This document shows positions 9,378 to 57,288 of a DNA stretch of 64,000 bases, one piece after another. Position 1 is the stretch's first letter, and the number at the start of each line of letters is the position of its first letter. Source of the DNA: Bacteroidia bacterium. GTDB lineage: Bacteria; Bacteroidota; Bacteroidia; Flavobacteriales_D; Cryomorphaceae. The translations under genes and the position numbers were made by a program. The notes under the pieces are model-generated. The model made no database searches and was not told the DNA's origin. It worked only from the letters and a program-made list of their open reading frames with translations. The stretch spans positions 151,722 through 215,721 of the forward strand of contig JAUICL010000004.1 in NCBI GenBank assembly GCA_030427905.1. The letters are read 5' to 3'.

Positions 9378-9430
9378 AAAAACCAAAGATTCGTTTTACC
9401 ATATTCGGGAATGTCGTTTGCGTTGAAATG
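9374..9430 (-). pseudogene. relic of the last 18 codons of a pAgo gene (HFNANDIPEYGKTNLWFL-stop)
   Basis: 52/53 nt identical to 32418-32470, the 3' end of the intact pAgo gene. An in-frame TAG lies immediately upstream. The relic TGA overlaps the Fur ATG as ATGA. Confidence 0.75.
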
Positions 9431-32413: not shown

Positions 32414-34510
32414 TTACAAAAACCAAAGATTAGTTTTACCATATTCGGGAATGTCGTTTGCGTTGAAATGTGGGGCGATTTGAGCCACCATTTCAGGGTA
32501 TTTGATTGTAACAGGCAGATTCTGTTGGCGTACTGACTTCCAATACATTCTGCTGAACTGATAGACTTGTTCTATCAGGTTCTTAATCACTTTCGTGTCT
32601 TTCAATTCTTCCTTATCAGTACAATCAATTTTGAGCTTTACAGGAAATGGATAGCCGTCTTTTGGTTTGGGTAATGAAGTGGCGTACCTGGTACTGTTGA
32701 ACAACAAATACTGCTTGCCACCTAAATTGATAAATGTGCCGCTCATTGGCATTCTGCCGTTCCATTTCTTGTCAAAGGCTAGTATGTCTCTTGATTCGGT
32801 TTTGTTGATTGTGATAATGAATACTGGAATGTCTAAGCCAAGATTCTTTAGTTCGTGTTGTATGGGTTCAATTTCCGCTTTACTCATGGTTTTGTAGAAG
32901 TGGATAATGAGTCTGGAAGGTTCGCCATGTGCCGCTGCATATTGACGAACTGAATCTGCTATTGAACCTGCAAGTACATCAATCTCATTTTTCATGAAAT
33001 ACTCAAAGCGATTGAAGCGGCCATGATTGGTGAAGCTGAAAGACGAACCTATGTACTGAATGTTTTCTTCTTTATGGAGGAAAGCTCCAATACCTACAAT
33101 CAATTCACTCTGTTCAGTTTGTTTGAGTTGCCAAGGAATGCCATTGAGCTTTGCGAGCATGGCAATAGAAATGTTGGGTAAGCTATACACCCAATCTTCA
33201 CCTTGCTCTTCCATCTTGGCAGGATCTATAGCCTGAGAAGTAATGTTGCGTTTGAGTAAGAGTTCTTTGACCTGATAATAGATTTCTCGGTGTTGCTTGT
33301 CTGTATCAAACTTGCCAAATGGCGTAATATAAACTGCTATGTATTGTACCGAAGGGTCAAATGTTCTCTTAGTTAGTATTTCTTCTATCTGCTCAATAGG
33401 ATTCTCTCTGTTCTTAAAGCGAATACTGAATCCTTCCTGCGTATGGAACATGATTTTGGCATAACGCTCTAAGCCTTTGAAAAAGCCGAAACCATTCTTG
33501 AAACGACTGTCAAGGTCTTTGACAGTTTCGTAATCATCTTCATGGAAGATATAGAATAGGTTGACGGCTGAATGTGGGCTTTTCTTGTAGGGCTTATGCA
33601 GCTTGATTCCTGTGTAGGGTACTTTCTCGGTATTGCCATTGCCAAAGAGCAATTCATTACTTTCTTCTGAGGTGGAATCAATAGAAGTGGGCTTTACCTT
33701 GATAAAACCGCTTTTGTGTAGGTCTATGACCTTTTTGAAGTCTTCAACATTGATATTCTGCTTGTAGAACTTAACAATCAGGTCTAAATAATCAGAATAC
33801 TTGTTGGTAGGTTTGATTGGCTCATAAGGATAACCCATGGCGTTTTCAATGTCTGCATTGAGCACTGGAAACACTTCTGCATTATCAACGTCTTCTTCAG
33901 ATTCTTGTAGATTATCCCATTTTTGTATCGCACCTTCATACATTACCCAATTGAATGCCGCTGCACTTACAGAATGGACTAGCTCGTTGGCTGGCTGTTT
34001 AAAGACTTTTGACCTACCATCAAAGGAGAGTAGGATTTCAGGATAACCGCTAAAATGCTTGATTTGAACTTTGAGCGTGTACTTTTCATAAACTGTAAAA
34101 TCGGTGTAGGGCTGTTTGGTTGCAGGAATCCAAACGTTGGTATCTGAAATGAATGTAGAGCGAACCAAGGTGTCTTCTTTGCTCAAAAAGTGGTTACGAA
34201 TGAGCCAATTGAAATATCGCTTGGCGAAACTGTATTTGCTCTTGCTAAGGTTGAGCGAGACATGAACGGAACCTTCACTAGCCACCGTATAGGTGGTGTA
34301 AAGGTGTTCTTGCTCTTGGCTGCCAAGGTTTGGAAATTGCTCTTTGATTTCATCAGGAACTACCGTATGGTAGATCCGTTCTGCTCCTGGTATTTCATCT
34401 TCGAAGAAGTGAAATTCTAGTGCTTCTGTAGGCCAATCGAATTTAAGTACATTGAAAAATAGCTCTTGGTTAGATTGATTGATATTTTGATTTGGCCTAT
34501 TGCTATTCAT
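32414..34510 (-). CDS. prokaryotic Argonaute (long pAgo; MID-PIWI present, catalytic tetrad apparently degenerate)
   Basis: MID-type 5'-end pocket residues YYQVK...TSQ...LAKLNGIPWQL. PIWI-like blocks are ELIVGIGAF, RLIIHFYKT and NLPVTIKYPEMVAQ, with G/Y/P where the D/D/H-type catalytic residues are expected. Confidence 0.75.
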   Translation of the reverse strand: MNSNRPNQNINQSNQELFFNVLKFDWPTEALEFHFFEDEIPGAERIYHTVVPDEIKEQFPNLGSQEQEHLYTTYTVASEGSVHVSLNLSKSKYSFAKRYFNWLIRNHFLSKEDTLVRSTFISDTNVWIPATKQPYTDFTVYEKYTLKVQIKHFSGYPEILLSFDGRSKVFKQPANELVHSVSAAAFNWVMYEGAIQKWDNLQESEEDVDNAEVFPVLNADIENAMGYPYEPIKPTNKYSDYLDLIVKFYKQNINVEDFKKVIDLHKSGFIKVKPTSIDSTSEESNELLFGNGNTEKVPYTGIKLHKPYKKSPHSAVNLFYIFHEDDYETVKDLDSRFKNGFGFFKGLERYAKIMFHTQEGFSIRFKNRENPIEQIEEILTKRTFDPSVQYIAVYITPFGKFDTDKQHREIYYQVKELLLKRNITSQAIDPAKMEEQGEDWVYSLPNISIAMLAKLNGIPWQLKQTEQSELIVGIGAFLHKEENIQYIGSSFSFTNHGRFNRFEYFMKNEIDVLAGSIADSVRQYAAAHGEPSRLIIHFYKTMSKAEIEPIQHELKNLGLDIPVFIITINKTESRDILAFDKKWNGRMPMSGTFINLGGKQYLLFNSTRYATSLPKPKDGYPFPVKLKIDCTDKEELKDTKVIKNLIEQVYQFSRMYWKSVRQQNLPVTIKYPEMVAQIAPHFNANDIPEYGKTNLWFL

Positions 34511-43597: not shown

Positions 43598-43650
43598 AAG
43601 TCACATCGAGTGGCCGAGAGAATGGAGGCTGTATCGAGATGGACGACAAG
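43598..43650 (+). repeat. solo A arm of the GIY-YIG-associated element family, wedged between the sucD stop and its terminator
   Basis: AAGTCACATCGAGTG-GCCGAGAGAATGGAGGC-TGTATCGAGATGGACGACAAG. Confidence 0.7.
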
Positions 43651-43706
43651 GTTTGTGCTGTTTCCATTTAAAGACAGCCCTAACAATATTAGATTTTTCA
43701 TAAGTA

Positions 43707-43737
43707 AACCCTGACGAATCTCGTCAGGGTTTTTTCT
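43707..43737 (+). terminator. rho-independent terminator of sucD
   Basis: CCCTGACGA-atc-TCGTCAGGG stem (43709-43729) followed by TTTTTT. Confidence 0.8.
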
Positions 43738-43779
43738 TGCTATAAAAGTTAAATGATGTTAGCCTATTTGGAGAGAACT

Positions 43780-43954
43780 AAGTCACATTAAGCGACAGTC
43801 CTGATCGCTAGCGTCGGGGATGGACGTCATCAATTTAGTGAACTATTAAATTCAACCACTCTAAGCCGTCGTTCTCGATACACTCCTAACCCTTCCTTTG
43901 GTCGGTTAGGACTACCATTGACGCTACGGTCAAGACATATGCTCGAACTGACTT
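43780..43954 (+). repeat. gene-less element copy (degenerate A arm plus B arm)
   Basis: AAGTCACATTAAGCG...GGATGGACGTCATC, then CCGTCGTTCTCGATACA...GCTCGAACTGACTT. Confidence 0.6.
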
Positions 43955-43967
43955 TAAGCAATAAATA

Positions 43968-44142
43968 AAGTCACATCGAGTGCCTGTGACCGACCAACGG
44001 GTAGGTCTGAGGCGTATCGAGATGGACGGCAAGACTTGTATACAACTTGACTCCGACATATTTTCCCGTCGTTCTCGATACATCCCGAAAGCTTTCGGGA
44101 TACCCTGACGTTCTCAGTCAGGGCAGGTGCTCGAACTGACTT
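43968..44142 (+). repeat. gene-less element copy (A arm, about 32-bp spacer, B arm with two hairpins)
   Basis: All four conserved boxes are present. The hairpins are TCCCGAAAGCTTTCGGGA and CCCTGACGTTCTCAGTCAGGG. Confidence 0.7.
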
Positions 44143-44158
44143 AAAACCGTAAAATTTA

Positions 44159-44223
44159 GTCACATCGAGTGCCTGTGACCGACCAACGGGTAGGTCGGAG
44201 GTGTATCGAGATGGATGGCAAAG
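44159..44223 (+). repeat. solo A arm, followed by a diverged duplicate of the sucD terminator segment
   Basis: Near-identical to the A arm at 43968-44033. The downstream 44224-44313 is homologous to 43651-43737. Confidence 0.65.
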
Positions 44224-44282
44224 TTTGTACTGTTTCCATTTACTTTCTTATCCCTAGAAATATTAGCCTTTTCAAAAGAAAA

Positions 44283-44316
44283 CCCCAACGAATCTCGTCA
44301 GGGTTTCTTTTTTGCT
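44283..44316. terminator. degenerate copy of the sucD terminator hairpin; may terminate the convergent gene 44330..45124
   Basis: CCCCAACGA-atc-TCGTCAGGG with two stem mismatches, and T-runs on both strands. Confidence 0.35.
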
Positions 44317-45302: not shown

Positions 45303-45450
45303 AAGTCACATCGAGTGATCGACTGAAAGGAGATTGTATCGAGATGGACGACACTATTTTTACAACATTTCAATACCGAAGAACATTCCCGTCGTTCTCG
45401 ATACATTCCTGACACTCTTTATAGTCGGTCAGAAATACTCGAACTGACTT
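45303..45450 (+). repeat. gene-less element copy (A arm, 35-bp spacer, short B arm)
   Basis: AAGTCACATCGAGTG...TGTATCGAGATGGACGACAC ... CCGTCGTTCTCGATACA...CTCGAACTGACTT. Confidence 0.7.
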
Positions 45451-45465
45451 AATGTCCTAAGATGC

Positions 45466-45995
45466 AGTCACATCGAGTGGCTCTGCCCGACCAGCGGAAA
45501 GGGTAGAGCTGTATCGAGATGCGACGGCAACCAATGAACACATCTCATATCTCGAAACATATATTCTCAACTATCACTTTTCCCCAGTCAAAACTTCTTT
45601 TTTGCCAAATCCACCAGTTTCCCAAATTCCCCATCTACTAGAGCTTGCTTTTTTGCATGGCTCCACTTTTTGATTCTTTTTTCCATTGCAATAGCTGCTT
45701 CGGGCGATGTAAAGCCTTCCGAATAAACGAGCTGCACAGGCCTCCGGCTGAATGTGTAAGAGTTAGGGTCTTTTCCTGATTGGTGTTCTCCAAACCGATG
45801 CTCGAGATCATTCGTAACACCGGTATAAAAAGTCTCATCAGTACAAAGTAAGATGTACAAATACATTCGTGAGCCTGCTTCTTTCATGTTTTAAAAATAA
45901 AGGAATTGAGGTCACTTGCCGTCGTTCTCGATACACCCCGAAGGCTTTCGGGGTACCCTAACGTTCTCAGTCAGGGCATGTGCTCGAACTGACTT
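45466..45995 (+). mobile_element. full-length element: A arm, GIY-YIG gene (antisense), B arm
   Basis: A arm at 45466-45530, ORF at 45588-45887, B arm at 45919-45995. The architecture matches 55711-56265. Confidence 0.55.
45588..45887 (-). CDS. small stand-alone GIY-YIG nuclease-family protein (YhbQ/COG2827-like)
   Basis: YLYILLC...FYTGVTNDLEHRFGEH...YSEGF...E: GIY and YIG blocks with the conserved Arg and Glu. 87 of 99 residues are identical to 55859..56158. Confidence 0.85.
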   Translation of the reverse strand: MKEAGSRMYLYILLCTDETFYTGVTNDLEHRFGEHQSGKDPNSYTFSRRPVQLVYSEGFTSPEAAIAMEKRIKKWSHAKKQALVDGEFGKLVDLAKKKF

Positions 45996-46010
45996 AAAAC
46001 AGTAAAATGT

Positions 46011-46186
46011 AGTCACATCGAGTGGCTCTAGCCGACCAGCGGAAAGGGTAGAGATGTATCGAGTTTTAGATCCCGACCGTTAGCGTCGGGGATGGACGAC
46101 AAGTCTTTTAGAATTGTTCATTATCGAAAAACATTCCCGTCGTTCTCGATACACCCCGAAGGTATTCGGGGTACTCGAACTGACTT
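46011..46186 (+). repeat. gene-less element copy (long A arm with an extra CCCGAC...GTCGGG hairpin, 33-bp spacer, short B arm)
   Basis: All boxes are present and it ends CTCGAACTGACTT at 46186. Confidence 0.7.
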
Positions 46187-46307
46187 CTTTACCGTCGTGA
46201 TTCACAATTTCTCGAATCACGAGCCAACCCAAAAAGCTATAATTTCTAAATTCCCGTATTCCATATACCTGAGTTTTTAACTTTGTTGGCTGTTTAATAT
46301 CTAGACT

Positions 46308-47054
46308 ATGAAATTACTGGAAGGAAAAGTAGCCATCATAACAGGTGCATCGCGAGGAATCGGGAAAGCCATCGCTCAATCATTCGTTAATCAGGGAGCC
46401 ATTGTATGCTTCACATACCGCAGCTCTGACGAGAAAGCCAGGGAGTTTGAAGCGGAGCTTACCGCTCAAGGTGGAGTAGCGCAAGGATTCAAATCTGACG
46501 CGGGCGATTTCGACGCCGCTCAAAAATTAGTTGATGAGGTGATCGAAGCCCACGGATCTATCGACGTATTGGTTAATAACGCCGGTATCACACGCGACAA
46601 TTTGCTGATGCGAATGAACGAAGAGCAGTGGGATGAAATCATGGCTGTTAACCTCAAGTCTGTTTTCAACCTGACCAAAGCCGTTTTGCGCCCTATGCTA
46701 AAGGCGCGTGGTGGGTCTATCATCAATATGAGTTCTGTAGTAGGGGTGAAGGGTAATGCCGGTCAGGCCAACTACGCCGCTTCAAAAGCAGGAATTCTAG
46801 GGTTTACCAAGTCGGTTGCCTTGGAGCTCGGTTCGCGAAACATTCGTTGCAACGCCATCGCTCCCGGATTTATCGAAACGGAAATGACCGATGCCCTCGA
46901 TGAGAAGACAGTTCAGGAATGGAGAGATGCCATCCCGCTCAAGCGCGGTGGTACACCAGAAGACGTGGCAAACTTGACGCTCTTCCTAGCTTCTGATATG
47001 AGTAATTACATCACCGGCCAAACCATCAATGTGGATGGTGGAATGCTAACCTAA
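46308..47054 (+). CDS. fabG: 3-oxoacyl-[acyl-carrier-protein] reductase
   Basis: TGASRGIGKA, NNAG, and the YAASKAG catalytic YxxxK. The length is typical. Confidence 0.9.
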   Translation: MKLLEGKVAIITGASRGIGKAIAQSFVNQGAIVCFTYRSSDEKAREFEAELTAQGGVAQGFKSDAGDFDAAQKLVDEVIEAHGSIDVLVNNAGITRDNLLMRMNEEQWDEIMAVNLKSVFNLTKAVLRPMLKARGGSIINMSSVVGVKGNAGQANYAASKAGILGFTKSVALELGSRNIRCNAIAPGFIETEMTDALDEKTVQEWRDAIPLKRGGTPEDVANLTLFLASDMSNYITGQTINVDGGMLT

Positions 47055-47055
47055 T

Positions 47056-49140
47056 TTGGAGAATTTAGCGATCGGATATCCGCTGTGGGCCATATTGCTA
47101 TGCCCCACGATTGGATTGGTTTACGCCTTGATTCTCTACTATCAGAATCGGCGAAACCAGTCTTTTGGCCAGACCCTGGTCTGGGCTTTGGGTATCGGTA
47201 GGTTTCTGCTCGTGACTGGGCTTTGCTTTTTGCTGCTCGAGCCTTTTCTCACTTACCTCGATATCGAAATCGAACCGCCCATCGTGGTGGTGGCCGTGGA
47301 TGAATCGCAGTCGATGGTACTGGGACCCGATTCGGCTCAGGTCAAGGCCGATGTCCGCGAATCGCTTGCTCTTTTGAATCGGGAATTGGGAGCTGAATTC
47401 GAACTGGCCGTATATGGTTTTGGGCAGGAAGTCCGCAATCAGATCGATTCGAGCTATGCCGATCCCGTGACCGATTTTTCCGATCTCTTTTCATCGCTCT
47501 CTGGACGTTACGCCAACCGAAATTTAGGAGCTGTGGTGGTGATCTCTGATGGAATCTACAACCGTGGCCGAAACCCGCGGTATGCCGTGGATCAACTGGC
47601 CACGCCGGTTTACACCATTGGAACGGGCGACACCATCCCACGCCGCGATTTAAAGATCGCCGAAGTAGCGGCCAACCGAATCGCCTTTTTGGGCAATCAG
47701 TTCCCAATAGAAGCCACAATCAGAGCCAGAAAATGCGAAGGTGAAAACGCCAACTACAGACTGGTGGGCCCAAGTGGAACCATTGAAGAAGGTGTGCTGC
47801 CGATCAACTCCGATGAGTTTGAAGCGACCGTTCGCTTTCTTGTGAATGCTTCAGAAATTGGCCTGCAGGCTTATCGGGTGGAAGTGAGCGGAGTGAGCAA
47901 TGAGATCACCAACTCAAACAATGCCCAGACGGTGTTTGTGGATGTGATCGACAGCCGACAAAAAATAGCCATCGTGGCTAAGGCGCCACACCCCGATTTG
48001 GCGGCTATCCGCAATGCGATTGCCACGAATGAAAACTACGAAGTCGAGATCATTTTTGAGTCCGACTTGAAGAAGGGAACCGAGAGTCCCGATCTCTGGA
48101 TTCTTCACCAGGTTCCTAATCGAAATACATCCCAAGACTGGATTCAGACCTGGGCTTCAGGCAAAACACCGATCTGGCTCTTCGGCGGAATCGATTCGGA
48201 TATTACCAACTGGGCCAGGCTGGGAGCAGGGGTGCGTCTTTCTGGTGGAAATGGAAGTTGGAATGACGTGGGCGGTTTGCTTTTGTCGGGATTCAATGCT
48301 TTTAAAGTCGATACCGAGATCAAATCCTTGCTGGCCGATGCCCCACCTGTGAAAGTGCCTTTTGGAAAGTGGATGACTTCTGGGGGAACACAGGTATTGC
48401 TGGATCAAAAAGTCGGTCAGATTGAAACGGGAGACCCGCTTCTGACTTTCTCAGAAAACACAAACCACAAGACGGCCGTGTTTATCGGCGAGGGAATTTG
48501 GAGATGGCGTCTGTTCAACTTTGCCATGAGCGAAAATCATCAGATCTTCGACGGAATGGTTTCGGGCATTGTTCAGTACCTATCGCTTAAGGAAGACAAA
48601 AGGCTGTTTCGCGTTTTTGGTCCATCTGAACTGATGGAAAACGAGCACGTGGTCTTCAACGCTGAGCTATACAACGACGCCTACCAACCCATAAACGACG
48701 AAGAAGTGGAACTTCGCATTGTCGATGCCGACGGTGTGGAATACCCTTTTAATTTCTCTCGAACGGGATCGGCCTACCGACTAGATGCGGGTGTTTTGCC
48801 GGTTGGTTCCTACACCTACCAGGGAAAGGTGGTGAAGAATGGGGAAGTCTTAACCGATGGTGGAAAGTTTGCCATTCTCCCATTCGCGCTTGAAGGCGGA
48901 AATCTGACAGCCAATCACCGTTTGCTTTTCCAAGTGTCAGAGCGGAGTGGGGGAACCTTTTATACCAGCGCTGGCACAAGCGACCTGATCGCCAATCTTA
49001 AAGCCGAATCGAAACTTGCACCGCGTAGCTTTAGCACCGAGCGCCGTAGCTCCGTACTCGATTTTAAATGGATTTTCTTCGTTCTACTCGGTATCATGAC
49101 CTTGGAGTGGATCGCCCGAAAATGGGCTGGTGGGTATTGA
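47056..49140 (+). CDS. conserved membrane-anchored hypothetical protein (possibly vWA-like N-terminal region)
   Basis: A 694-aa ORF with a TTG start, N-terminal TM helices, VVVAVDESQSM, and a C-terminal TM segment. Confidence 0.55.
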   Translation: MENLAIGYPLWAILLCPTIGLVYALILYYQNRRNQSFGQTLVWALGIGRFLLVTGLCFLLLEPFLTYLDIEIEPPIVVVAVDESQSMVLGPDSAQVKADVRESLALLNRELGAEFELAVYGFGQEVRNQIDSSYADPVTDFSDLFSSLSGRYANRNLGAVVVISDGIYNRGRNPRYAVDQLATPVYTIGTGDTIPRRDLKIAEVAANRIAFLGNQFPIEATIRARKCEGENANYRLVGPSGTIEEGVLPINSDEFEATVRFLVNASEIGLQAYRVEVSGVSNEITNSNNAQTVFVDVIDSRQKIAIVAKAPHPDLAAIRNAIATNENYEVEIIFESDLKKGTESPDLWILHQVPNRNTSQDWIQTWASGKTPIWLFGGIDSDITNWARLGAGVRLSGGNGSWNDVGGLLLSGFNAFKVDTEIKSLLADAPPVKVPFGKWMTSGGTQVLLDQKVGQIETGDPLLTFSENTNHKTAVFIGEGIWRWRLFNFAMSENHQIFDGMVSGIVQYLSLKEDKRLFRVFGPSELMENEHVVFNAELYNDAYQPINDEEVELRIVDADGVEYPFNFSRTGSAYRLDAGVLPVGSYTYQGKVVKNGEVLTDGGKFAILPFALEGGNLTANHRLLFQVSERSGGTFYTSAGTSDLIANLKAESKLAPRSFSTERRSSVLDFKWIFFVLLGIMTLEWIARKWAGGY

Positions 49141-49251
49141 TAGATCCATTGGTCTTTTTGTAGAGTTTTCTTAAAGTCCGGGCTGATCAGCACATTAAAA
49201 GGAGATTTGTCCACATTTCTTACTACTTTCAGTAGAAATGAAAGAACTCAG

Positions 49252-50229
49252 ATGAAAGCCCAGAGAAAGTTTTGCGTTCCTTTTTTGGTAGTCGCTTTAC
49301 TCCAAGTCGCAGGTGTTCGAGATATCTACGCCCAGAATTTAGTCCCCAATGGTAGTTTTGAAGAAGGGATAAACTGTCCGACTCAGGCTGGAAATGTTAC
49401 ATTAGAGTGTGCTGAATGGTATGCTAGTGTGCAGAACTCTGCTGGGACTTCGCCAACTCCTGACTGGTTTCATGGTTGTTCTGAAAATGACGGGTACGTT
49501 CCACCGGAAGTTTGGATTGGTTTTCAAGAGCCGGTAGATGGTGATGGGTATGTTGGGTTGTTTGCGTTTTCAACCACGGTTAGCAATGGTAGAGAAATTG
49601 TTGCTGTACAATTGTCATCACCTCTTGAAATAGGTTCAGTATATCAAGTTGAGTTTTCTGTTTCTAATATGGCAGAACCAGAGATAGCCATTGAAACAAA
49701 TCAAATTGGATTTAATTTTTCCACACATCAGTATTACAACTACGATCAATTCCCTATTAATCAGAGCCATTTTTCAGTTGAAGAGATTATTCCATGGTCA
49801 TTGGATTGGTATCACGTCTCTTATCAATTCGAGGCAGACTCGGCATATGAATTTTTACACATTGGAAATTTTTATGATGACCAAAACACGCTAACCAACT
49901 TTTTAAATGATAGTGCAACTAGAGCGTATTATGCTATTGATAATGTCAGTGTCTCACACGTGCTGAACACTTCAGAAAATGGTCGAAGTTCAACCGTTAC
50001 CGTTTATCCAAATCCAGCTCATTCCAGTATTCAAATAAATGCTCAATCTGAATTGAGAGAAGCGATAATTTCGATCTATTCCGCTACAGGGAATAAGGTT
50101 TTTGAAGAATACTACAGGGATTGGGCGCCAGGCGATCAGATTGATGTTTCTGACTTCGAGCAGGGGATGTATTGTCTAAGAATTATTAGTCCACAGGGAG
50201 TTTACTTCGAGTCTTTTATCAAGAACTAA
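49252..50229 (+). CDS. secreted protein with a T9SS C-terminal sorting domain
   Basis: Signal peptide from MKAQRKFCVPFLVVALL. C-terminal VYPNPAHSSIQINA...IYSATGNKV...GMYCLRII. Confidence 0.7.
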   Translation: MKAQRKFCVPFLVVALLQVAGVRDIYAQNLVPNGSFEEGINCPTQAGNVTLECAEWYASVQNSAGTSPTPDWFHGCSENDGYVPPEVWIGFQEPVDGDGYVGLFAFSTTVSNGREIVAVQLSSPLEIGSVYQVEFSVSNMAEPEIAIETNQIGFNFSTHQYYNYDQFPINQSHFSVEEIIPWSLDWYHVSYQFEADSAYEFLHIGNFYDDQNTLTNFLNDSATRAYYAIDNVSVSHVLNTSENGRSSTVTVYPNPAHSSIQINAQSELREAIISIYSATGNKVFEEYYRDWAPGDQIDVSDFEQGMYCLRIISPQGVYFESFIKN

Positions 50230-50292
50230 AACCGCATTCAAACTCAAAAGAATGTCTCTGCTCTACTTGAATTGAGCAGGAACAAGGGCATT

Positions 50293-50330
50293 AAAAAACC
50301 CTGACAGCTCAAGACTGTCAGGGTTTCTTT
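50293..50330. terminator. bidirectional rho-independent terminator between convergent genes
   Basis: AAAAAA-CCCTGACAG-ctcaaga-CTGTCAGGG-TTTCTTTT. Confidence 0.8.
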
Positions 50331-50351
50331 TGGTTTCAATTTCCCTTGAAA

Positions 50352-52631
50352 TTATTTGATCAAGAGTTTCTTTGTCAATGCACCGTGATTTACCGTGTTG
50401 ATCTGAATCAGGTAAAGCCCCGGAGCAAAATCGTTGGTTTCGAGCTTGATCATCGTCTCCCCAATTCCAATGTTTTTCTCAGCTACTTTTCTTCCTTGGA
50501 TATCTACCAAAGTAAGCGAAGTAGATTCTCCCGCCAGATCTCCAATTTCAATGCGAACGGCGTCAGTGGCTGGGTTAGGGTATACGTTGATGTCGTTTAG
50601 AAGTTCGGCGTTTGCGACACTATTTATGATGATGCAGAACTCAACTTCATCCATATCTCCAAACTGACCACCCGTTCCAAGTACAGTCCCAAATTCATCC
50701 GTCAGGGTATAGCTACCGTTTCCTTCACCACAGCAAATACCATCGCCCCAGCTATCTTCGATCACGAAAGTGTAGCATCCTTCACCAAAACAGATTTCTT
50801 CTGAAATAGTAGCTCCTGGCTGTGAGTAACCTCCACCAGAAACCAAAATATCATTGCTCTCATCCATGATAAACCAGCTGGTTTCACCAGGGTATTGATC
50901 AAACGTAATTTCAAGGGTAATGTCTTGCGATTCTTCATATGCGATCATGGAACGATCAACCGTATTTCCGTTCGGATCCACGTCTTCACTACCATTCACC
51001 GTTACAACAGAAACCTGAATGGTGTTTTCGCCATAAACCAAGGCGAGCGCACCGAGATCGATATTTGTCGATTCTCCGTTACCCAGATTGAGTCCGTTTA
51101 CTTCGATCGTTTCTGGACTTCCTCCGTTGGTGATCACTTCTAGCTCAACAGATGTTACATTGTTTAACCCTGTATTGATCACTGTTACGAATGGCTCAAT
51201 AGTCTCTAGTTCGCAATAGCGGCTCTCAACATCTCCAATTTGGCTTAAGATTACGTTGTTGTCAACGAGAATAGCACAAGAGTTTGGAACAATCATTTGA
51301 CCCGTTCCAGCCGGATCGAGCCAATGCTCGAGTTGTTCGTCGTTGTTTGACGAAAAGTCCCACGACACACCGAATCTTCCATAGTAATCTTCCTGTCCAT
51401 TATTGACCGTTCCACTGCACGCGGCAAGTCCACCAGCGAGTTGACCAATGATATTACCACTTTGGTTGAAGAGTGGAGATCCCGAAGAACCACCTTCCGT
51501 AACACCCAATTCCCATTGGTTGATAAACCAAACCTGGTTTACAAAGGATCCTTGGTTTGCGTGAAAAGGCGCATCATCTTCAAAGCAGATTTTCTTGTAA
51601 TCTCCACTTGGGTGGTGAATTCCATATGCGTTAGTAACGTTCAGCGCATCGGTGGCATCCCACCCGGAGTAACACACATTGTAGCTCGCTGGGACGTCAT
51701 CGTGCAATTCCAAAAGTGCAAAATCTGATTCGTCATTTGATGCCAATAGGTCGCTTCCAGATACCGTTTGGTTGGTTGGTCCATCTTCAGTCCCTTCACA
51801 ATCTGGCGTTTCGTGGTTGAAAATGAAAATCCAGTTATTCAATGTGTTTTCGCTGAACGGAAGACAGTGATTTGCTGTAAGGAAGTAAGGCAATTGTTCA
51901 GTGGAAGTGGTGTTGATCATGGCTCCGCTACATACCGAATTATTGCCTACAACAATCAGGGCCACGCTTCGCTTTTGGATGTCAAAGGGGATTCCTTCCG
52001 GACAGTTTACATTAATGTTACAAGCACCAGAATTACCGTAAGGGCCTGCTTTTTCTTCAGAAACGATGTTTCCACCCAAAACGCTTCGGTAACCGTGCAC
52101 GATATTGCTGATGTGGATGTATCCTTCACCGGCAACGCCAGCGGGCTCAAGGTATTCGATCACGGCTTCGTCCCCTTTCAGAAGGCCGATAGCCAGAGAG
52201 TTAATTTTGCTTTTGTTTTCATGGGTGAAACTTCCAAGCATCTGTTTGCGGTCGGGTGAGTAGACGAATACTTGTCCGCCAACGGGAATTTCGAAGGCAT
52301 CGAGCACGAAATTGAGCGTAAGCGCTCCTTCCGATTTGATTCCCAATTGCCAAATGCGGTCTCCATTTTCCAATTCTGTCCAAACCCCATTTGTACTTGA
52401 AGATAGATCTACCGATAGGTCAACCCCATAGCGGTAAGGGATGTCTTTGTGCTTGTCTGTCATTTCATCTTCGCGGTGGAGTGGGGCTAAATCTGGTTTT
52501 TCAAGTGTTTCCCAAATCACGTCGGTGGTGATTTCTTGCGTCCATGAAGCGGGCTGCCCACCATGGCTTATTTGGGCTTGCGAAAGCGTTGAAATCAACG
52601 CGAATAAAAGAACGAGTCGAATCGTTTTCAT
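50352..52631 (-). CDS. secreted trypsin-like (S1 family, lysyl-endopeptidase-like) serine protease with a T9SS C-terminal sorting domain
   Basis: His motif LTANHC, Ser motif GGSSGSPLF, signal peptide, and C-terminal VYPNPATDAVRIEI...GLYLIQI. Confidence 0.8.
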   Translation of the reverse strand: MKTIRLVLLFALISTLSQAQISHGGQPASWTQEITTDVIWETLEKPDLAPLHREDEMTDKHKDIPYRYGVDLSVDLSSSTNGVWTELENGDRIWQLGIKSEGALTLNFVLDAFEIPVGGQVFVYSPDRKQMLGSFTHENKSKINSLAIGLLKGDEAVIEYLEPAGVAGEGYIHISNIVHGYRSVLGGNIVSEEKAGPYGNSGACNINVNCPEGIPFDIQKRSVALIVVGNNSVCSGAMINTTSTEQLPYFLTANHCLPFSENTLNNWIFIFNHETPDCEGTEDGPTNQTVSGSDLLASNDESDFALLELHDDVPASYNVCYSGWDATDALNVTNAYGIHHPSGDYKKICFEDDAPFHANQGSFVNQVWFINQWELGVTEGGSSGSPLFNQSGNIIGQLAGGLAACSGTVNNGQEDYYGRFGVSWDFSSNNDEQLEHWLDPAGTGQMIVPNSCAILVDNNVILSQIGDVESRYCELETIEPFVTVINTGLNNVTSVELEVITNGGSPETIEVNGLNLGNGESTNIDLGALALVYGENTIQVSVVTVNGSEDVDPNGNTVDRSMIAYEESQDITLEITFDQYPGETSWFIMDESNDILVSGGGYSQPGATISEEICFGEGCYTFVIEDSWGDGICCGEGNGSYTLTDEFGTVLGTGGQFGDMDEVEFCIIINSVANAELLNDINVYPNPATDAVRIEIGDLAGESTSLTLVDIQGRKVAEKNIGIGETMIKLETNDFAPGLYLIQINTVNHGALTKKLLIK

Positions 52632-52637
52632 AGGCTA

Positions 52638-53072
52638 TTAGTAAGAGTAATCGATGGTTTTATTGGTGTTGGTGACCACGAAAAGCACCTGGCTGGTGCT
52701 CGGGTTTTGAAATGGTGTCACGTCGAAGAAAAGTCGCTTGTCAATCAATGATCTGCATCTATCACCATTGGCATTGTGCTCTAGGTGTATTTCTAATTCT
52801 ACGGGGTAGGTTGGCGTGAACTTTCCATTGGAAACGAGATTGAACTCGTGCTCTTCACATCCACCCGAATACGATACATCTATCTGGAGAAAATCCCCAA
52901 CAGTTTCCACGTGTTTTATGTTGACTGGATCGGTGTATCCGTGCATCGAAGCACTTAAATCGATGATGGCTTTGGGTGCAGATTCGGGAATGTGGGTGTT
53001 GGCAGTATGCATGTTGACGCCACATCCGACAAATAAGCCGGCCAGAATGATGATGGTGAGCAGGTTTTTCAC
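52638..53072 (-). CDS. hypothetical lipoprotein
   Basis: Lipobox-like LFVGCG. The 144-aa ORF abuts the protease gene. Confidence 0.5.
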   Translation of the reverse strand: MKNLLTIIILAGLFVGCGVNMHTANTHIPESAPKAIIDLSASMHGYTDPVNIKHVETVGDFLQIDVSYSGGCEEHEFNLVSNGKFTPTYPVELEIHLEHNANGDRCRSLIDKRLFFDVTPFQNPSTSQVLFVVTNTNKTIDYSY

Positions 53073-53160
53073 TTCGACAAATTAAACCCGAATGAACGGA
53101 AGAATAGCATAAAGATGAAGGGTGCCATTGGAATCTTAAGAAGATGAACCTGTTGAAACA

Positions 53161-53189
53161 AAAAATCCCCCCGGTTTAGCGGGGGGATT
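53161..53189 (-). terminator. rho-independent terminator of dnaA
   Basis: ATCCCCCCG-gtttag-CGGGGGGAT stem, with a T-run on the minus strand (AAAAA at 53161-53165 on plus). Confidence 0.75.
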
Positions 53190-53192
53190 GGA

Positions 53193-54623
53193 TTATTGAA
53201 TGCTTAGCTTTTTCTCCAGGTCTTCCAGATACTTCCGGAATTGCTTATCGGTTTCCTGCAGGTTGTTTACCGTTCGGCAGGCGTGCAGCACCGTAGCGTG
53301 GTCTTTCCCACCGCAGTGCATCCCGATATTCGCCAGACTGCTTTTGGTCATCTTCTTGGCAAAGTACATAGCGATCTGACGGGCCTGTACCACTTCTCTC
53401 TTTCTGGTTTTAGATTTGAGAAGCTCAATAGGCAAGTCGAAATAATCGCACACCACTTTTTGAATGTAGTCGATAGACACTTCGCGGGCCGTATTCTTCA
53501 CAAACTTGTCGATCATCTGTTTTGCGAGTTCCAGATTCACGGCCTTCTTGTTTAGTGAAGAGTGGGCAATTAGAGAAATCAAGGCTCCTTCGAGTTCGCG
53601 AATGTTTGTCGTAACGCTGTAGGCAAGGTACTCTACCACATCTTTGGGTAGGTCTATACCATCGGCGTACATTTTCTTTTCCAAAATGGCGATTCGCGTC
53701 TCGAGACTTGGTGTTTGCAAATCGGCTGACAATCCCCACTTGAAGCGCGAAAGAAGGCGTTGCTCCATTCCCTGCATTTCTACAGGTGCTTTATCACTTG
53801 TTAGAACGATCTGTTTGCCGGTTTGGTGCAAATGATTGAAGATGTGGAAGAACATGTCTTGCGTTTTTTCCTTTCCTGCAAGGAATTGCACATCGTCAAT
53901 GATTAGCACATCAATCATTTGATAGAAATGACTGAAGTCGTTGACATTATTGTTTTTAACGGCGTCGATAAACTGGTGAATAAACTTCTCAGATTCGACG
54001 TAAAGCACAGTCTTGTTCGGAAATCTGTTCTTGATTTCAATTCCGATAGCTTGTGCCAAATGCGTTTTTCCCAGTCCAACACCTCCATATATCAAGAGAG
54101 GGTTGAATGCTGTACCACCAGGGTTTTTGGCAACTGCAAATCCAGCCGAACGGGCCAGTCTATTGCAATCTCCTTCTACCAGGTTTTCAAACGAGTAGTT
54201 GGGTTTAAGATTCGAATCCACGTTGATCTTTCTAAGACCAGGGATCACAAAAGGGTTTTTGATCTGCTTGCTCCCGATGTCCATTGGGGCAGATACAGGA
54301 TGATTCTTGACGGCGCGCTTATTGGATGTCGGAATCTTCACGGTATAAGGGCTAGAGCCATTATAGTTGTTTTCCATGATGATGCTGTACTCCAATCTCC
54401 CCTCATCTCCTAACTCCTTCTTGATGATCTTCTTAAGTAAGTGGATGTAGTGTTCTTCCAACCATTCGTAAAAAAACTGAGAAGGTACCTGGATGGTCAA
54501 AACCTGGTTGTCCAATTTGACAGGTTTGATCGGTTCAAACCAAGTTTTGTATCCCTGAAGGCTAACATTGTCTTTTATTAACGAAAGACAGTTATCCCAT
54601 ACTTCCTCATGTTTATTACTCAT
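53193..54623 (-). CDS. dnaA: chromosomal replication initiator protein DnaA
   Basis: Walker A GGVGLGKTHL, the box VII region, and the C-terminal DNA-binding signature RQIAMYFAKKMT...GGKDHATVLHA. Confidence 0.95.
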   Translation of the reverse strand: MSNKHEEVWDNCLSLIKDNVSLQGYKTWFEPIKPVKLDNQVLTIQVPSQFFYEWLEEHYIHLLKKIIKKELGDEGRLEYSIIMENNYNGSSPYTVKIPTSNKRAVKNHPVSAPMDIGSKQIKNPFVIPGLRKINVDSNLKPNYSFENLVEGDCNRLARSAGFAVAKNPGGTAFNPLLIYGGVGLGKTHLAQAIGIEIKNRFPNKTVLYVESEKFIHQFIDAVKNNNVNDFSHFYQMIDVLIIDDVQFLAGKEKTQDMFFHIFNHLHQTGKQIVLTSDKAPVEMQGMEQRLLSRFKWGLSADLQTPSLETRIAILEKKMYADGIDLPKDVVEYLAYSVTTNIRELEGALISLIAHSSLNKKAVNLELAKQMIDKFVKNTAREVSIDYIQKVVCDYFDLPIELLKSKTRKREVVQARQIAMYFAKKMTKSSLANIGMHCGGKDHATVLHACRTVNNLQETDKQFRKYLEDLEKKLSIQ

Positions 54624-55109
54624 TAGTTGATCTGTGTAGTAACGGTTAATAACTATGGTTTCCGATAGCGGCTTCTTGCCTATCTATCACCTTCGAAAAG
54701 CGTGACAAATATTTGAGAAAAAAAGTGAAAAAAAAAGCCGTTTTGCTATTGTCAGAAATAAAAGTTTTACAGGGCGGAGAAAAACTGTCATTCTCGCGAT
54801 AAACCCTGTTCTGGCACGGTTTTAATTTCAGGCTGTAAACCCTATCAGTACTAGGGTTCTAGCGTTTTTCATGACGTCATTTTTTGCATCCTTTTGAGAA
54901 GCAAAAACCAGGAAAACATCCTGATAATGAGTGTTTAAAATGGCATGCTTTATAACAACTCTAGACGGGGTTGATTTAGTGTGTTCGTGAATGAAAAAAA
55001 TTCACTTTCCACTTCATCAACGAAGCGTTGAAGATAGTCCATTTTGGTGGGTAATAAAAGAGGAATCCAAAACTTAATTTTGGTCAGAGAAGGATATATC
55101 TTTGGCTGC

Positions 55110-55517
55110 ATGATCGTAAACAATACAAGATTTAGAGTGCGGTATGCCGAAACCGACCAAATGGGGTATGTCTATTATGGTAATTACGCCGCTTTTTTTG
55201 AAGTAGGGCGTGTAGAGCTCCTCAGAGATTTGGGGACGAGCTATAAATCGCTGGAGGATGAAGGTGTTATGCTCCCCGTCCGCGATTTCACGACGCGTTA
55301 TTTTCGTCCGGCGAAATACGATCAGGAGATTTTTCTCGAAACGCGCTTGGAAGAAATGCCGGGATCGCGGATTACCTTCCACTACACTCTAAAGTCTGCC
55401 GAAGACGAAGTGCTCACCACCGCAGTAATTACACTGGTTTTTGTGGATATGAAAACCCAGCGCCCGATGAAGATCCCGGAGTCTTTAGCCAAGCTGATGC
55501 AGCCGCATTTTGGGTAG
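55110..55517 (+). CDS. acyl-CoA thioesterase (4HBT/YbgC hot-dog family)
   Basis: RVRYAETDQMGYVYYGNYAAFFEVGR. I chose the start at MIVNNTRF (55110); the ORF track begins at 55044. Confidence 0.8.
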   Translation: MIVNNTRFRVRYAETDQMGYVYYGNYAAFFEVGRVELLRDLGTSYKSLEDEGVMLPVRDFTTRYFRPAKYDQEIFLETRLEEMPGSRITFHYTLKSAEDEVLTTAVITLVFVDMKTQRPMKIPESLAKLMQPHFG

Positions 55518-55535: not shown

Positions 55536-55695
55536 AAGTCACATCGAGTGGCTCTGGCCGACCAGTGGAGAGGTCAGAGGTGTATCGAGATGCGGCGACA
55601 CTAATTGTACAACATTTCAATTCTGGGAACTTTGCCGTTGTTCTCGATATATTCTTCACATCTTGTTAGTCGGTAAAGAATACTCGAACTGACTT
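55536..55695 (+). repeat. gene-less element copy (A arm, spacer, short B arm), starting 18 nt after the thioesterase stop
   Basis: AAGTCACATCGAGTGGCTCTGGCCGACC...TGTATCGAGATGCGGCGACAC ... CCGTTGTTCTCGATATA...CTCGAACTGACTT. Confidence 0.7.
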
Positions 55696-55710
55696 AGAAT
55701 CGTAAACTGC

Positions 55711-56265
55711 AGTCACATCGAGTGGCTCTGCCCGACCGGCGGGAAGGGTAGAGGTGTATCGAGTCTTGATCCCGACCGTAAGCGTCGGGGATGGACGACA
55801 ACCAATGAACACATCTCTTATTTCAAAGCTTAAATTCTCATTTACCACTTTACCCCAGTCAAAACTTCTTTTTCGATAGTTCAACCAGTCTCCCAAAGTC
55901 CCCATTTACCAGGGCTTGCTTTTTAGCATGGCTCCACTTTTTTACTCTTTTTTCCATTGCAATAGCTGCTTCAGGAGATGTAAAGCCTTCTGAATAAACG
56001 AGTTGCAATGGTCGTCGGCTGAATGTGTATGAGTCCGGGTGTTTTCCCGATTGATGTTCTCCAAACCGATGCTCAAGATCATTCGTGACACCTGTATAAA
56101 AAGTGTTGTCAGAACAGAGTAAGATGTACAAATACATTCGTGCGCCTGCTTCTTTCATGTTTTAAATTTAAAGAATTGGGGTTGCTTGTCGTCGTTCTCG
56201 ATACACCCCGAAGGCTTTCGGAATACCCTGACGTTCTCAGTCAGGGCAGGTGCTCGAACTGACTT
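55711..56265 (+). mobile_element. full-length element: A arm, GIY-YIG gene (antisense), B arm
   Basis: A arm at 55711-55801, ORF at 55859-56158, B arm at 56189-56265. The flanks between the arms and the ORF are homologous to those of the copy at 45466-45995. Confidence 0.55.
55859..56158 (-). CDS. small stand-alone GIY-YIG nuclease-family protein (second copy)
   Basis: Same motifs as 45588..45887, with 12 substitutions over 99 aa. Confidence 0.85.
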   Translation of the reverse strand: MKEAGARMYLYILLCSDNTFYTGVTNDLEHRFGEHQSGKHPDSYTFSRRPLQLVYSEGFTSPEAAIAMEKRVKKWSHAKKQALVNGDFGRLVELSKKKF

Positions 56266-56279
56266 TAATCAATTAAATT

Positions 56280-56469
56280 AAGTCACATCGAGCGACAGTC
56301 CTGATCGAAAGCATCAGGATGGCCGACTGCAAGGAGGCTGTATCGAGATGCGACGACAATAGATGTATACAACTTGATTCCACCATACTTTGCCGTTGTT
56401 CTCGATACACCCCGAAGGCTTTCGGGGTACCCTAACGTTCTCAGTCAGGGCAGGTGCTCGAACTGACTT
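56280..56469 (+). repeat. gene-less element copy (A arm with an extra TCCTGAT-cgaaagc-ATCAGGA hairpin, spacer, long B arm)
   Basis: All boxes are present. It is preceded by the 14-bp linker TAATCAATTAAATT. Confidence 0.7.
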
Positions 56470-56483
56470 TAATCAATTAAATT

Positions 56484-56618
56484 AAGTCACATCGAGTGGC
56501 CGACTGCAAGGAGGCTGTATCGAGATGCGACGACAATAGATGCATTCAGCTTGGTTCCCACATATTTTGCCGTTGTTCTCGATACATCCCGAAGATTTTT
56601 GGGATACTCGAACTGACT
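56484..56618 (+). repeat. gene-less element copy (A arm, spacer, short B arm)
   Basis: All boxes are present. It is preceded by an identical 14-bp linker, TAATCAATTAAATT (56470-56483). Confidence 0.7.
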
Positions 56619-56679: not shown

Positions 56680-57288
56680 CTAAAAAATCCCCACCAATTT
56701 AGCCTCCACACCACTAAATGCTTCAAAGCTTCCCGGCACTTGATCTTGGTTCTCTGGAAGCACCACAACATCCACTGTACAAGTGTCTCTAAAATCTTGA
56801 TTCATCGACTCCCAGCCATTGGTGCGGATTATGCGCATCACATCGCTCATGCGGTCATAGCCGAAGTGTATAGTGAAGTGCGCCATCAATTGGCGTTCGA
56901 TGATGGTAGCGTCTTCAATGGCCATGTCGGCGGCGGTGCGGTAGGCATCTATCAGTCCACCTACGCCTAACTTCGTTCCACCGAAATAGCGGACTACGGC
57001 AATCAGGACATTGGTGAGATCGTATTTTTCAATCTGGCCGAGAATCGGTTTCCCGGCAGAGTTTGACGGCTCCCCATCGTCGTTGGCACGGTATTGCTCT
57101 TTATCTGCTCCGAGTCGCCAGGCGTAGCAAACGTGTCGGGCGCTGTGGTGTTCTTCTTTGATTTCATTGAGACGCTCCTGAATGTCTTCTGCCGTTTTTA
57201 CATGGATGGCATAACCAAAATGCTTGCTGCCTTTCACCTTGTACAGGCTTTTCCCGGTTTTCGAAAGTGTCAGATAGTTATAGTGCAT
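56680..57288 (-). CDS. yigZ: IMPACT-family protein YigZ
   Basis: KGSKHFGYA, HVCYAWRLG, DDGEPSNSAGKPILGQI. Confidence 0.8.
   Translation of the reverse strand: MHYNYLTLSKTGKSLYKVKGSKHFGYAIHVKTAEDIQERLNEIKEEHHSARHVCYAWRLGADKEQYRANDDGEPSNSAGKPILGQIEKYDLTNVLIAVVRYFGGTKLGVGGLIDAYRTAADMAIEDATIIERQLMAHFTIHFGYDRMSDVMRIIRTNGWESMNQDFRDTCTVDVVVLPENQDQVPGSFEAFSGVEAKLVGIF

Follow-up and report, generated by a model that had tools for sequence, protein, structure and literature searches.

What kind of element is formed by a small nuclease gene that lies among hairpin-forming repeats, when the same repeats recur beside it without the gene? The question is raised by array III, a 1.1-kb intergenic gap with four co-oriented hairpin-forming repeat units, one of which carries a GIY-YIG open reading frame (ORF). 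The array lies in a stretch of 64,000 nt from a Bacteroidia bacterium of the Cryomorphaceae (GenBank assembly GCA_030427905.1, contig JAUICL010000004.1, positions 151,722 to 215,721 of the forward strand), here called the window. In total, the window holds 11 units or half-units, all in the same direction, distributed over three arrays (I, II and III, at 43.6-44.3, 45.3-46.2 and 55.5-56.6 kb, respectively). As argued below from sequence features and from analogy, array III is probably a Bacteroidota version of the Ssn nuclease/SRM system, in which a GIY-YIG nuclease is paired with the repeats around its own gene, laid out in the manner of REP/BIME arrays. The observation is real, and is best filed as a variant-armed addition to the Ssn/SRM kind, not as a new kind of system.

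Repeat arms and their strand signature

Each unit is composed of two arms. Read 5' to 3' on its own strand, an arm begins with GTCA(C/G)NTCGAGT, continues through a variable hairpin and closes with GTATCGAGA, with a length of approximately 40-65 nt. In every unit the boxes follow in the order GTCAC(A)TCGAGT, hairpin, GTATCGAGA, spacer, TCTCGATAC, hairpin and ACTCGAACTGAC; all four boxes are invariant, and the unit ends read GTCA...TGAC. Since the right half is the inverted left half, a single strand can form a cloverleaf, in which P1 and P3 are pairings between the arms, and P2 and P4 are the hairpins of the individual arms. This fold was stable in each unit (z -3 to -8), and for unit 4 of array III a cloverleaf was obtained with DNA parameters on both strands (z -3.9 for the + strand and -2.5 for the - strand). 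P1 and P3 were strongly conserved, P2 and P4 varied in sequence with their pairing kept, and conserved mismatches (C·C, A·A and G·G) occurred between the arms. The left arm (GTCAC(A/T)...GAGA(T/A)G) differed from the right arm (GTCAGT...GAGAAC; each on its own strand), and every unit therefore has a polarity, which is conserved across genomes. Left- and right-arm hairpins within one unit were mostly no more similar to each other than shuffled sequence, and it is thus the boxes, not the hairpins, that make the arms inverted repeats.

The G·T wobbles of the hairpins were distributed in mirrored fashion between the two arms. Left-arm hairpins had 26 wobbles on the top strand versus 3 on the bottom strand, and right-arm hairpins 4 versus 32 (Fisher p 7e-11); counted per locus, the bias was 13:0 for the left arm and 2:11 for the right arm. 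Each arm is therefore optimised to fold on the strand where 5'-GTCA begins it, and a single transcript of a unit would always carry one damaged hairpin, containing C·A mismatches. This fits arms that act as two inverted, oriented hairpin sites in single-stranded DNA (ssDNA) rather than as one RNA. The ORF was in sense orientation with respect to the polar arms in 14 cases and in antisense orientation in about 10, the two classes being intermixed in the protein tree. Searches against Rfam returned no match in the window at gathering score, and just a chance snoRNA match at E up to 10; in 20 related loci only tRNA and tmRNA were matched. The Pedo-repair and Flavo-1 motifs (Weinberg 2010) were considered as candidates; both are in Rfam, and neither matches.

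The nuclease gene and its pairing with the arms

GIY-YIG was the sole Pfam match of the 99-aa protein, which has no second domain; it had no match in NCBIfam, nor among PADLOC models or PHROG families. Residues Y11, Y21, G23, R31, H35 and E69 were invariant among 45 homologues, and a C-terminal K-x-W motif was invariant in the family of the window's protein, present in SRM-flanked proteins and absent from UPF0213/YhbQ-type proteins. In agreement with the initial annotation, the protein was identical to that of the array II copy (ORF 45588-45887) at 87 of 99 residues. At the nucleotide level the two genes differed at 38 positions, and the comparison of synonymous and non-synonymous changes (dN/dS 0.106, dS 0.55) does not agree with neutrally evolving pseudogenes; judged by these values, the two are old paralogues under purifying selection. 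A TAnnTTT-like box (TAAATTTA, TATTTTTA) lies 6-13 nt upstream of the nuclease start codon (56159-56175 and 45888-45905, minus strand), and a similar box was seen in several homologous loci, which points to a Bacteroidota-type promoter of the gene's own within the spacer, and to a very short leader.

Protein homologues at 48-66% identity were common, and a set of 82 homologous nuclease loci was assembled from metagenomes and genomes. The window's arm type flanked 30 of the 82 genes, and a sister arm type, (T)GTCA..CTGAG..TCGAAG with an inverted copy downstream, flanked 45, giving 75 flanked genes; neither type was found at the other seven loci, some of which are at contig ends. In a 43 kb control sequence the two arm patterns were rare or absent. 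The ORF was always located in the inter-arm spacer, and adjacent ORF-less units were separated by regular linkers, whose length was constant within a genome and ranged from 12 to 27 nt between genomes. At loci from Maribacter (L038) and a Bacteroidetes metagenome-assembled genome (MAG; L039), the gene lies exactly between the inner boxes, and in the latter it is surrounded by at least eight gene-less units. Discordant histories of arms and genes, which would have pointed to chance juxtaposition, were not observed: the nearest protein neighbour had the same arm type in 66 of 72 cases, a number reached in 0 of 2,000 permutations. Among the genes examined, about 91% in the window's clade were repeat-flanked, versus 71% with any SRM in the published survey (PMC11893778).

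A single ORF-bearing unit was present directly upstream of recJ, at the same place, in three Flavobacteriaceae-like loci (L038, at 2439-2853; L066; L109), and long vertical retention is therefore indicated. The array of L039 adjoins dnaE, and the window arrays are within a few kb of dnaA; this nearness to replication and repair genes may be due to chance.

Compact units, about 100 nt in length and either single or in tandem, were found in Arcticibacter, Tenacibaculum, Cryomorpha and several Bacteroidota MAGs. A scan with a 20-base arm pattern over one genome per species gave 37 loci, against approximately 34 expected by chance by our own estimate; only the Bacteroidota loci were real, matches elsewhere being about as many as the estimated chance number. 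Methylobacterium homologues (44-51% identity) had arms resembling the sister type, and the repeat-bearing clade thus extends beyond Bacteroidota. The closest plasmid-borne homologues, on Methylobacterium plasmids (L122, L123), were flanked by CTCATCCTGAGG...CCTCGAAGGAGG repeats, which resemble the sister arm type of Bacteroidota and also a common repeat of Rhizobiales genomes. On viral contigs only relatives at 46% identity or less were detected, with arm-box matches at the chance rate (10 of 77 loci). Literature searches on the conserved box and sister-arm sequences, on GIY-YIG proteins with MITEs (transposable elements of the miniature inverted-repeat type) or non-coding RNA, and on COG2827/UPF0213/YhbQ gave nothing relevant.

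Array boundaries, copying and turnover

The four units of array III and their linkers occupy 55537-56618 and cover 1,082 of the 1,162 nt between the stop codons of the thioesterase and yigZ genes (Table 1). Exact AGTCACATCGAG marks the unit starts at 55537, 55711, 56281 and 56485, and exact CTCGAACTGACT the unit ends at 55694, 56264, 56468 and 56618; the boundaries given in the initial annotation agree with these to within 1 nt. The terminal 12-mers had 23-24 matches window-wide (at most 2 mismatches), versus about 4 expected, and 0 of 100 shuffles had as many. Linkers in the window arrays were all 15-16 nt long. The identical 14-bp linkers TAATCAATTAAATT reported earlier at 56266-56279 and 56470-56483 are present, the full linkers being the 16-nt TTAATCAATTAAATTA.

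The miniature units, previously described as related copies without the gene, are indeed such copies. Units 3 and 4 had been thought to differ by a single extra hairpin module; the hairpin named is real (56293-56319), but unit 3 contains two 27-nt modules, not one, the second being near its 3' end (approximately 56430-56456; 188 versus 134 nt). The comparison of the two units supports the modular gain or loss of hairpins that had been proposed. A hairpin module of the form TCCYGAYCGnnAGCRTCRGGGA is found at 56299-56319, 55770-55791, 46071-46092 and 43799-43820, after the outer left box in some units and within the inner stem in others, and because of these two different positions it behaves as a separate insertable module. 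Copying of the whole arm-gene-arm unit, rather than of the gene alone, was corroborated by the end-to-end alignment of the two ORF-bearing units (554 versus 529 nt, 83.8% identity), which includes the homologous non-coding stretches CCAATGAACACATCTC and CATGTTTTAAA...CTTG.

Turnover of the arrays was apparent in a Cryomorpha MAG that is syntenic with the window (88-94% identity). The flanks of its orthologous array II locus are 91-94% identical to those in the window, whereas the locus itself lacks the nuclease gene and has one degenerate unit, one chimeric unit and a half-unit. As its unit content differs from that of the window, the arrays turn over quickly by inter-unit recombination. No population variants were obtained from Logan contigs of the window's organism, as these break where the arrays lie.

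Table 1. Coordinates of the repeat arrays and adjoining genes in the window
Feature	Position	Strand	Basis or remark
Thioesterase gene	55044-55517	+	Stop at 55517; left neighbour of array III
Array III unit 1, ORF-less miniature doublet of inverted arms, 158 nt	55537-55694	+	Exact terminal 12-mers; covariance model R1 57 bits, E 7e-12
Linker, 16 nt, A/T-rich, TAGAATCGTAAACTGC	55695-55710	.	Sequence
Array III unit 2, ORF-bearing doublet, 554 nt	55711-56264	+	Exact terminal 12-mers; end-to-end alignment with array II unit
Unit 2, left arm	55711-55765		
Unit 2, extra hairpin	55770-55791		
Nuclease gene, 99-aa single-domain GIY-YIG, in spacer between arms of unit 2	55859-56158	-	Pfam PF01541, E 7e-17, residues 8-80
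Unit 2, right arm	56196-56264		
Linker, 16 nt, TTAATCAATTAAATTA	56265-56280	.	Same sequence as linker 56469-56484
Array III unit 3, miniature doublet, 188 nt, two extra 27-nt hairpin modules	56281-56468	+	R1 41.9 bits, E 4e-8
Linker, 16 nt, TTAATCAATTAAATTA	56469-56484	.	Same sequence as linker 56265-56280
Array III unit 4, minimal miniature doublet, 134 nt	56485-56618	+	Best R1 match in window, 71.9 bits, E 1.4e-15
UPF0029/yigZ gene	56680-57288	-	Stop at 56680; right neighbour of array III
Array II: miniature unit, ORF-bearing unit 45466-45994 (ORF 45588-45887, -), miniature unit	45304-46185	+	R1 model, repeats
Array I: full units 43781-43953 (degenerate) and 43969-44141; 5' half-units from 43599 and 44158	43599-44312	+	R1 model, repeats

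Arrays I and III are located downstream of convergent genes, and one half-unit of array I sits between the sucD stop codon and its terminator. Behind each array I half-unit (43599-43738 and 44158-44312) comes a tail of about 80 nt, the two tails being homologous (84% identical) and ending in a terminator-like hairpin, AAACCCTGACGAATCTCGTCAGGGTTTTTT; the arrangement resembles a segmental duplication of half-unit and terminator together, downstream of sucD. In scans of the window, promoter-like and terminator-like sites were no commoner than chance, and GC skew gave no replication-origin signal. Apart from the arrays, the otherwise syntenic Cryomorpha MAG locus (L008) lacks the 340-aa ORF at 49207-50229, which is called a Por_Secre_tail protein in a Logan contig from the window's organism, and block 46226-49140 directly adjoins block 50288-53337 there. 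Two copies of a 53-nt direct repeat (98% identity), unrelated to the arrays, lie 23 kb apart at 9378-9430 and 32418-32470.

Proposed mechanism, alternatives and known systems

Ssn proteins, described in 2025 as the first known enzymes that cut ssDNA only and do so site-specifically, are single-domain GIY-YIG proteins of about 94 aa (CDD cd10448), which in vitro bind and cut only ssDNA, on one strand, a few nt upstream of a hairpin repeat termed NTS/SRM (Chenal et al., Nat Commun 2025, PMC11893778). Ssn genes are themselves flanked by the repeat ('NTS-ssnA-NTS'), which is present in hundreds of clustered copies; the authors liken it to REP/BIME repeats and RAYT transposases, and see uses of the enzymes in ssDNA technology (PMC11893778). 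Transferred to array III, each unit would be a head-to-head pair of oriented sites, with the nuclease gene in the spacer of unit 2 and no gene in the other three units. When the locus turns single-stranded, in replication, repair, or DNA uptake or transfer, each arm would fold on its own strand, and the nuclease would bind the folded arm via the invariant flanking boxes and cut the arm's strand a few nt 5' of the site, that is, in the 15-16-nt linker. Double-stranded DNA (dsDNA) and RNA would not be substrates. Repeats and nuclease would evolve as a matched pair, with the gene kept by selection and the arrays growing, shrinking and reshuffling by inter-unit recombination. For the ssDNA-specific cleavage, the position of the cut and the biological role, we infer from the work on Neisseria SsnA. 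The role may be to limit or control recombination of incoming ssDNA, the selfish persistence of gene and repeats, or help in spreading the repeats, and genome plasticity near dnaA, dnaE and recJ is another candidate. Because the hairpins vary freely while the boxes are fixed, the boxes or the arm-arm helices may be what is recognised.

Several observations weigh against this assignment. The published SRM pattern, HGTCWYN(0-2)YYVSBRHN(0-5)WNVSBRGN(0-2)RNCYNB, matched no window unit and 0 of 80 metagenome loci; the one match in the window (42289) was unrelated, and in the positive control (L124) the pattern was present to the left and right of the gene. Of the pattern, the window's left arm shares just the HGTCWY start (AGTCAC). 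In BLASTP, the window protein scored slightly nearer to UPF0213 (BH0048, 61.6 bits; YhbQ, 52 bits) than to an SRM-flanked Sphingobium protein (49 bits), and E. coli yhbQ lies so close to its neighbours yhbP and yhbS that arms would not fit around it. Furthermore, the NTS hairpin sequence itself is recognised in Neisseria, whereas the window hairpins vary freely, so recognition may differ. Membership in Ssn/SRM is thus unproven, as the SRM pattern matches no arm and UPF0213 scores slightly nearer. It is conceivable, although we regard it as doubtful, that the Bacteroidota proteins are a separate branch lying between UPF0213/YhbQ and canonical Ssn proteins, with the bipartite-box doublets being REPIN-like elements and the nuclease helping to excise and spread ssDNA units cut in the fixed-length linkers. 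If true, this would be a second, independent origin of a REP/RAYT-style partnership, with an enzyme unable to rejoin DNA, and UPF0213 proteins such as E. coli YhbQ would be suggested as site- or structure-specific ssDNA nucleases.

A conventional DNA transposon or homing element, in which the arms would be dsDNA terminal inverted repeats, the GIY-YIG protein a transposase or homing endonuclease, and the miniature units MITEs that it mobilises, would account for a gene between inverted repeats, for the gene-less miniatures, for the GTCA...TGAC ends, and for unit content that differs between genomes with 91-94% identical flanks. GIY-YIG homing endonucleases are well known, yet GIY-YIG enzymes hydrolyse DNA and carry out no strand transfer, and the protein here is a bare catalytic domain with no DNA-binding domain. 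No target-site duplications were seen by eye around solitary units (L013, L020, L023, L032), each arm has a strand-specific hairpin that dsDNA recognition does not need, and the recJ-upstream ORF unit at the same site in several genomes indicates vertical inheritance; we consider such an element unlikely, with the overlap that Ssn-type cleavage could itself help to spread the repeats. The cloverleaf folds and the varying P2 and P4 hairpins had given rise to the idea that the units are structured non-coding RNA genes (a four-way-junction RNA or a tandem ribozyme array, of about 100 nt), with the ORF a passenger in a variable loop. The stability of the fold, the conservation of P1 and P3 and the retained pairing of P2 and P4 agree with this idea, as does the direction of the window units, all of which share it with at least one flanking gene. 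The candidate was ruled out, with a very small probability left to it, by the wobbles falling on opposite strands in the two hairpins, by the ORF facing either way with respect to the arms, even where the proteins are closely related, and by the lack of an Rfam match; promoter- and terminator-like sites at chance level also speak against it.

It is likewise very improbable that the arms are REP-like regulatory or structural elements (stabilisers of mRNA 3' ends, terminators or protein-binding sites) to which the nuclease is linked incidentally. The position of arrays I and III downstream of convergent genes and of the half-unit between the sucD stop and its terminator would suit such a function, but arms around 75 of the 82 nuclease genes, of a type that tracks the protein phylogeny, are unexpected for an incidental neighbour, and terminator-like sites were not in excess. 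Both orientations of the ORF relative to the polar arms, with flips among close relatives, could also be produced if the arms flanked an invertible segment that acts as a phase-variation switch for the nuclease gene. Rare recombination between inverted arms suffices for such flips, however, no recombinase gene adjoins the arrays, and a single orientation was found in both window copies and in the Logan contig of the same organism, which makes a switch extremely improbable.

Under the Ssn/SRM reading, the locus suggests a nuclease-repeat partnership that is common in Bacteroidota, in a repeat form missed by the published SRM pattern, and it offers a candidate substrate pair with another recognition logic, in which invariant boxes surround a free hairpin. 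The mirrored wobble bias is a simple computational sign of a repeat that is read as strand-specific folded ssDNA, and could be looked for in other repeat families.

The likeness to Ssn/SRM comprises a single-domain GIY-YIG protein of about 94-100 aa (99 aa in the window, with intact catalytic residues), a gene that stands between inverted, hairpin-forming repeats opening with (H)GTC(W)(Y), the occurrence of this repeat in many gene-less, clustered and oriented copies, nuclease and repeat as co-evolving pairs, and an in-silico strand signature that fits the published strand-specific, ssDNA-only recognition. A GIY-YIG protein encoded on a Sphingobium plasmid aligned with the window protein at 34% identity over 90 aa (BLASTP E 3e-14, hhalign probability 98.3%), and its gene has inverted repeats matching the published SRM pattern on both sides; in a search seeded with the Sphingobium homologue, all of the matches listed (at least 120) were from Sphingomonadales. 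The window system differs in its longer arms, whose freely variable hairpin stands between invariant TCGAG boxes, in its regular inverted doublets, which stand in tandem arrays with fixed-length linkers and systematically unlike left and right arms, and in its host, which belongs to Bacteroidota. The closest relatives with solved structures are UPF0213/YhbQ-type proteins (BH0048, PDB 1zg2; EF2693, PDB 1ywl), which the A2 profile matched at E 6e-20 and 4e-15, respectively, BH0048 being 44% identical over 77 aa. In contrast to intron-encoded or free-standing homing endonucleases of the I-TevI/Seg type, in which the GIY-YIG domain is fused to one that binds DNA and whose genes reside in group I introns or phage genomes, the window protein has no joined DNA-binding domain, no intron match in Rfam and no PHROG match.

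Integron attC sites are imperfect palindromes that are used as folded single strands, with unpaired bases marking the strand used, and the conserved arm-arm mismatches (C·C, A·A and G·G) may have a parallel there; attC sites, however, carry gene cassettes and recombine through a tyrosine recombinase, and no integrase is present here. With the REP/BIME and REPIN-RAYT systems of E. coli and Pseudomonas, the arrays share extragenic palindromic inverted doublets, tandem mosaic arrangement with alternating short linkers, a single- or low-copy gene flanked by the same repeats, and sites thought to be recognised as ssDNA hairpins. The enzyme of those systems is a Y1/HUH transposase (IS200/IS605-type) that cuts and rejoins DNA, whereas the enzyme here is a GIY-YIG nuclease and hydrolytic.

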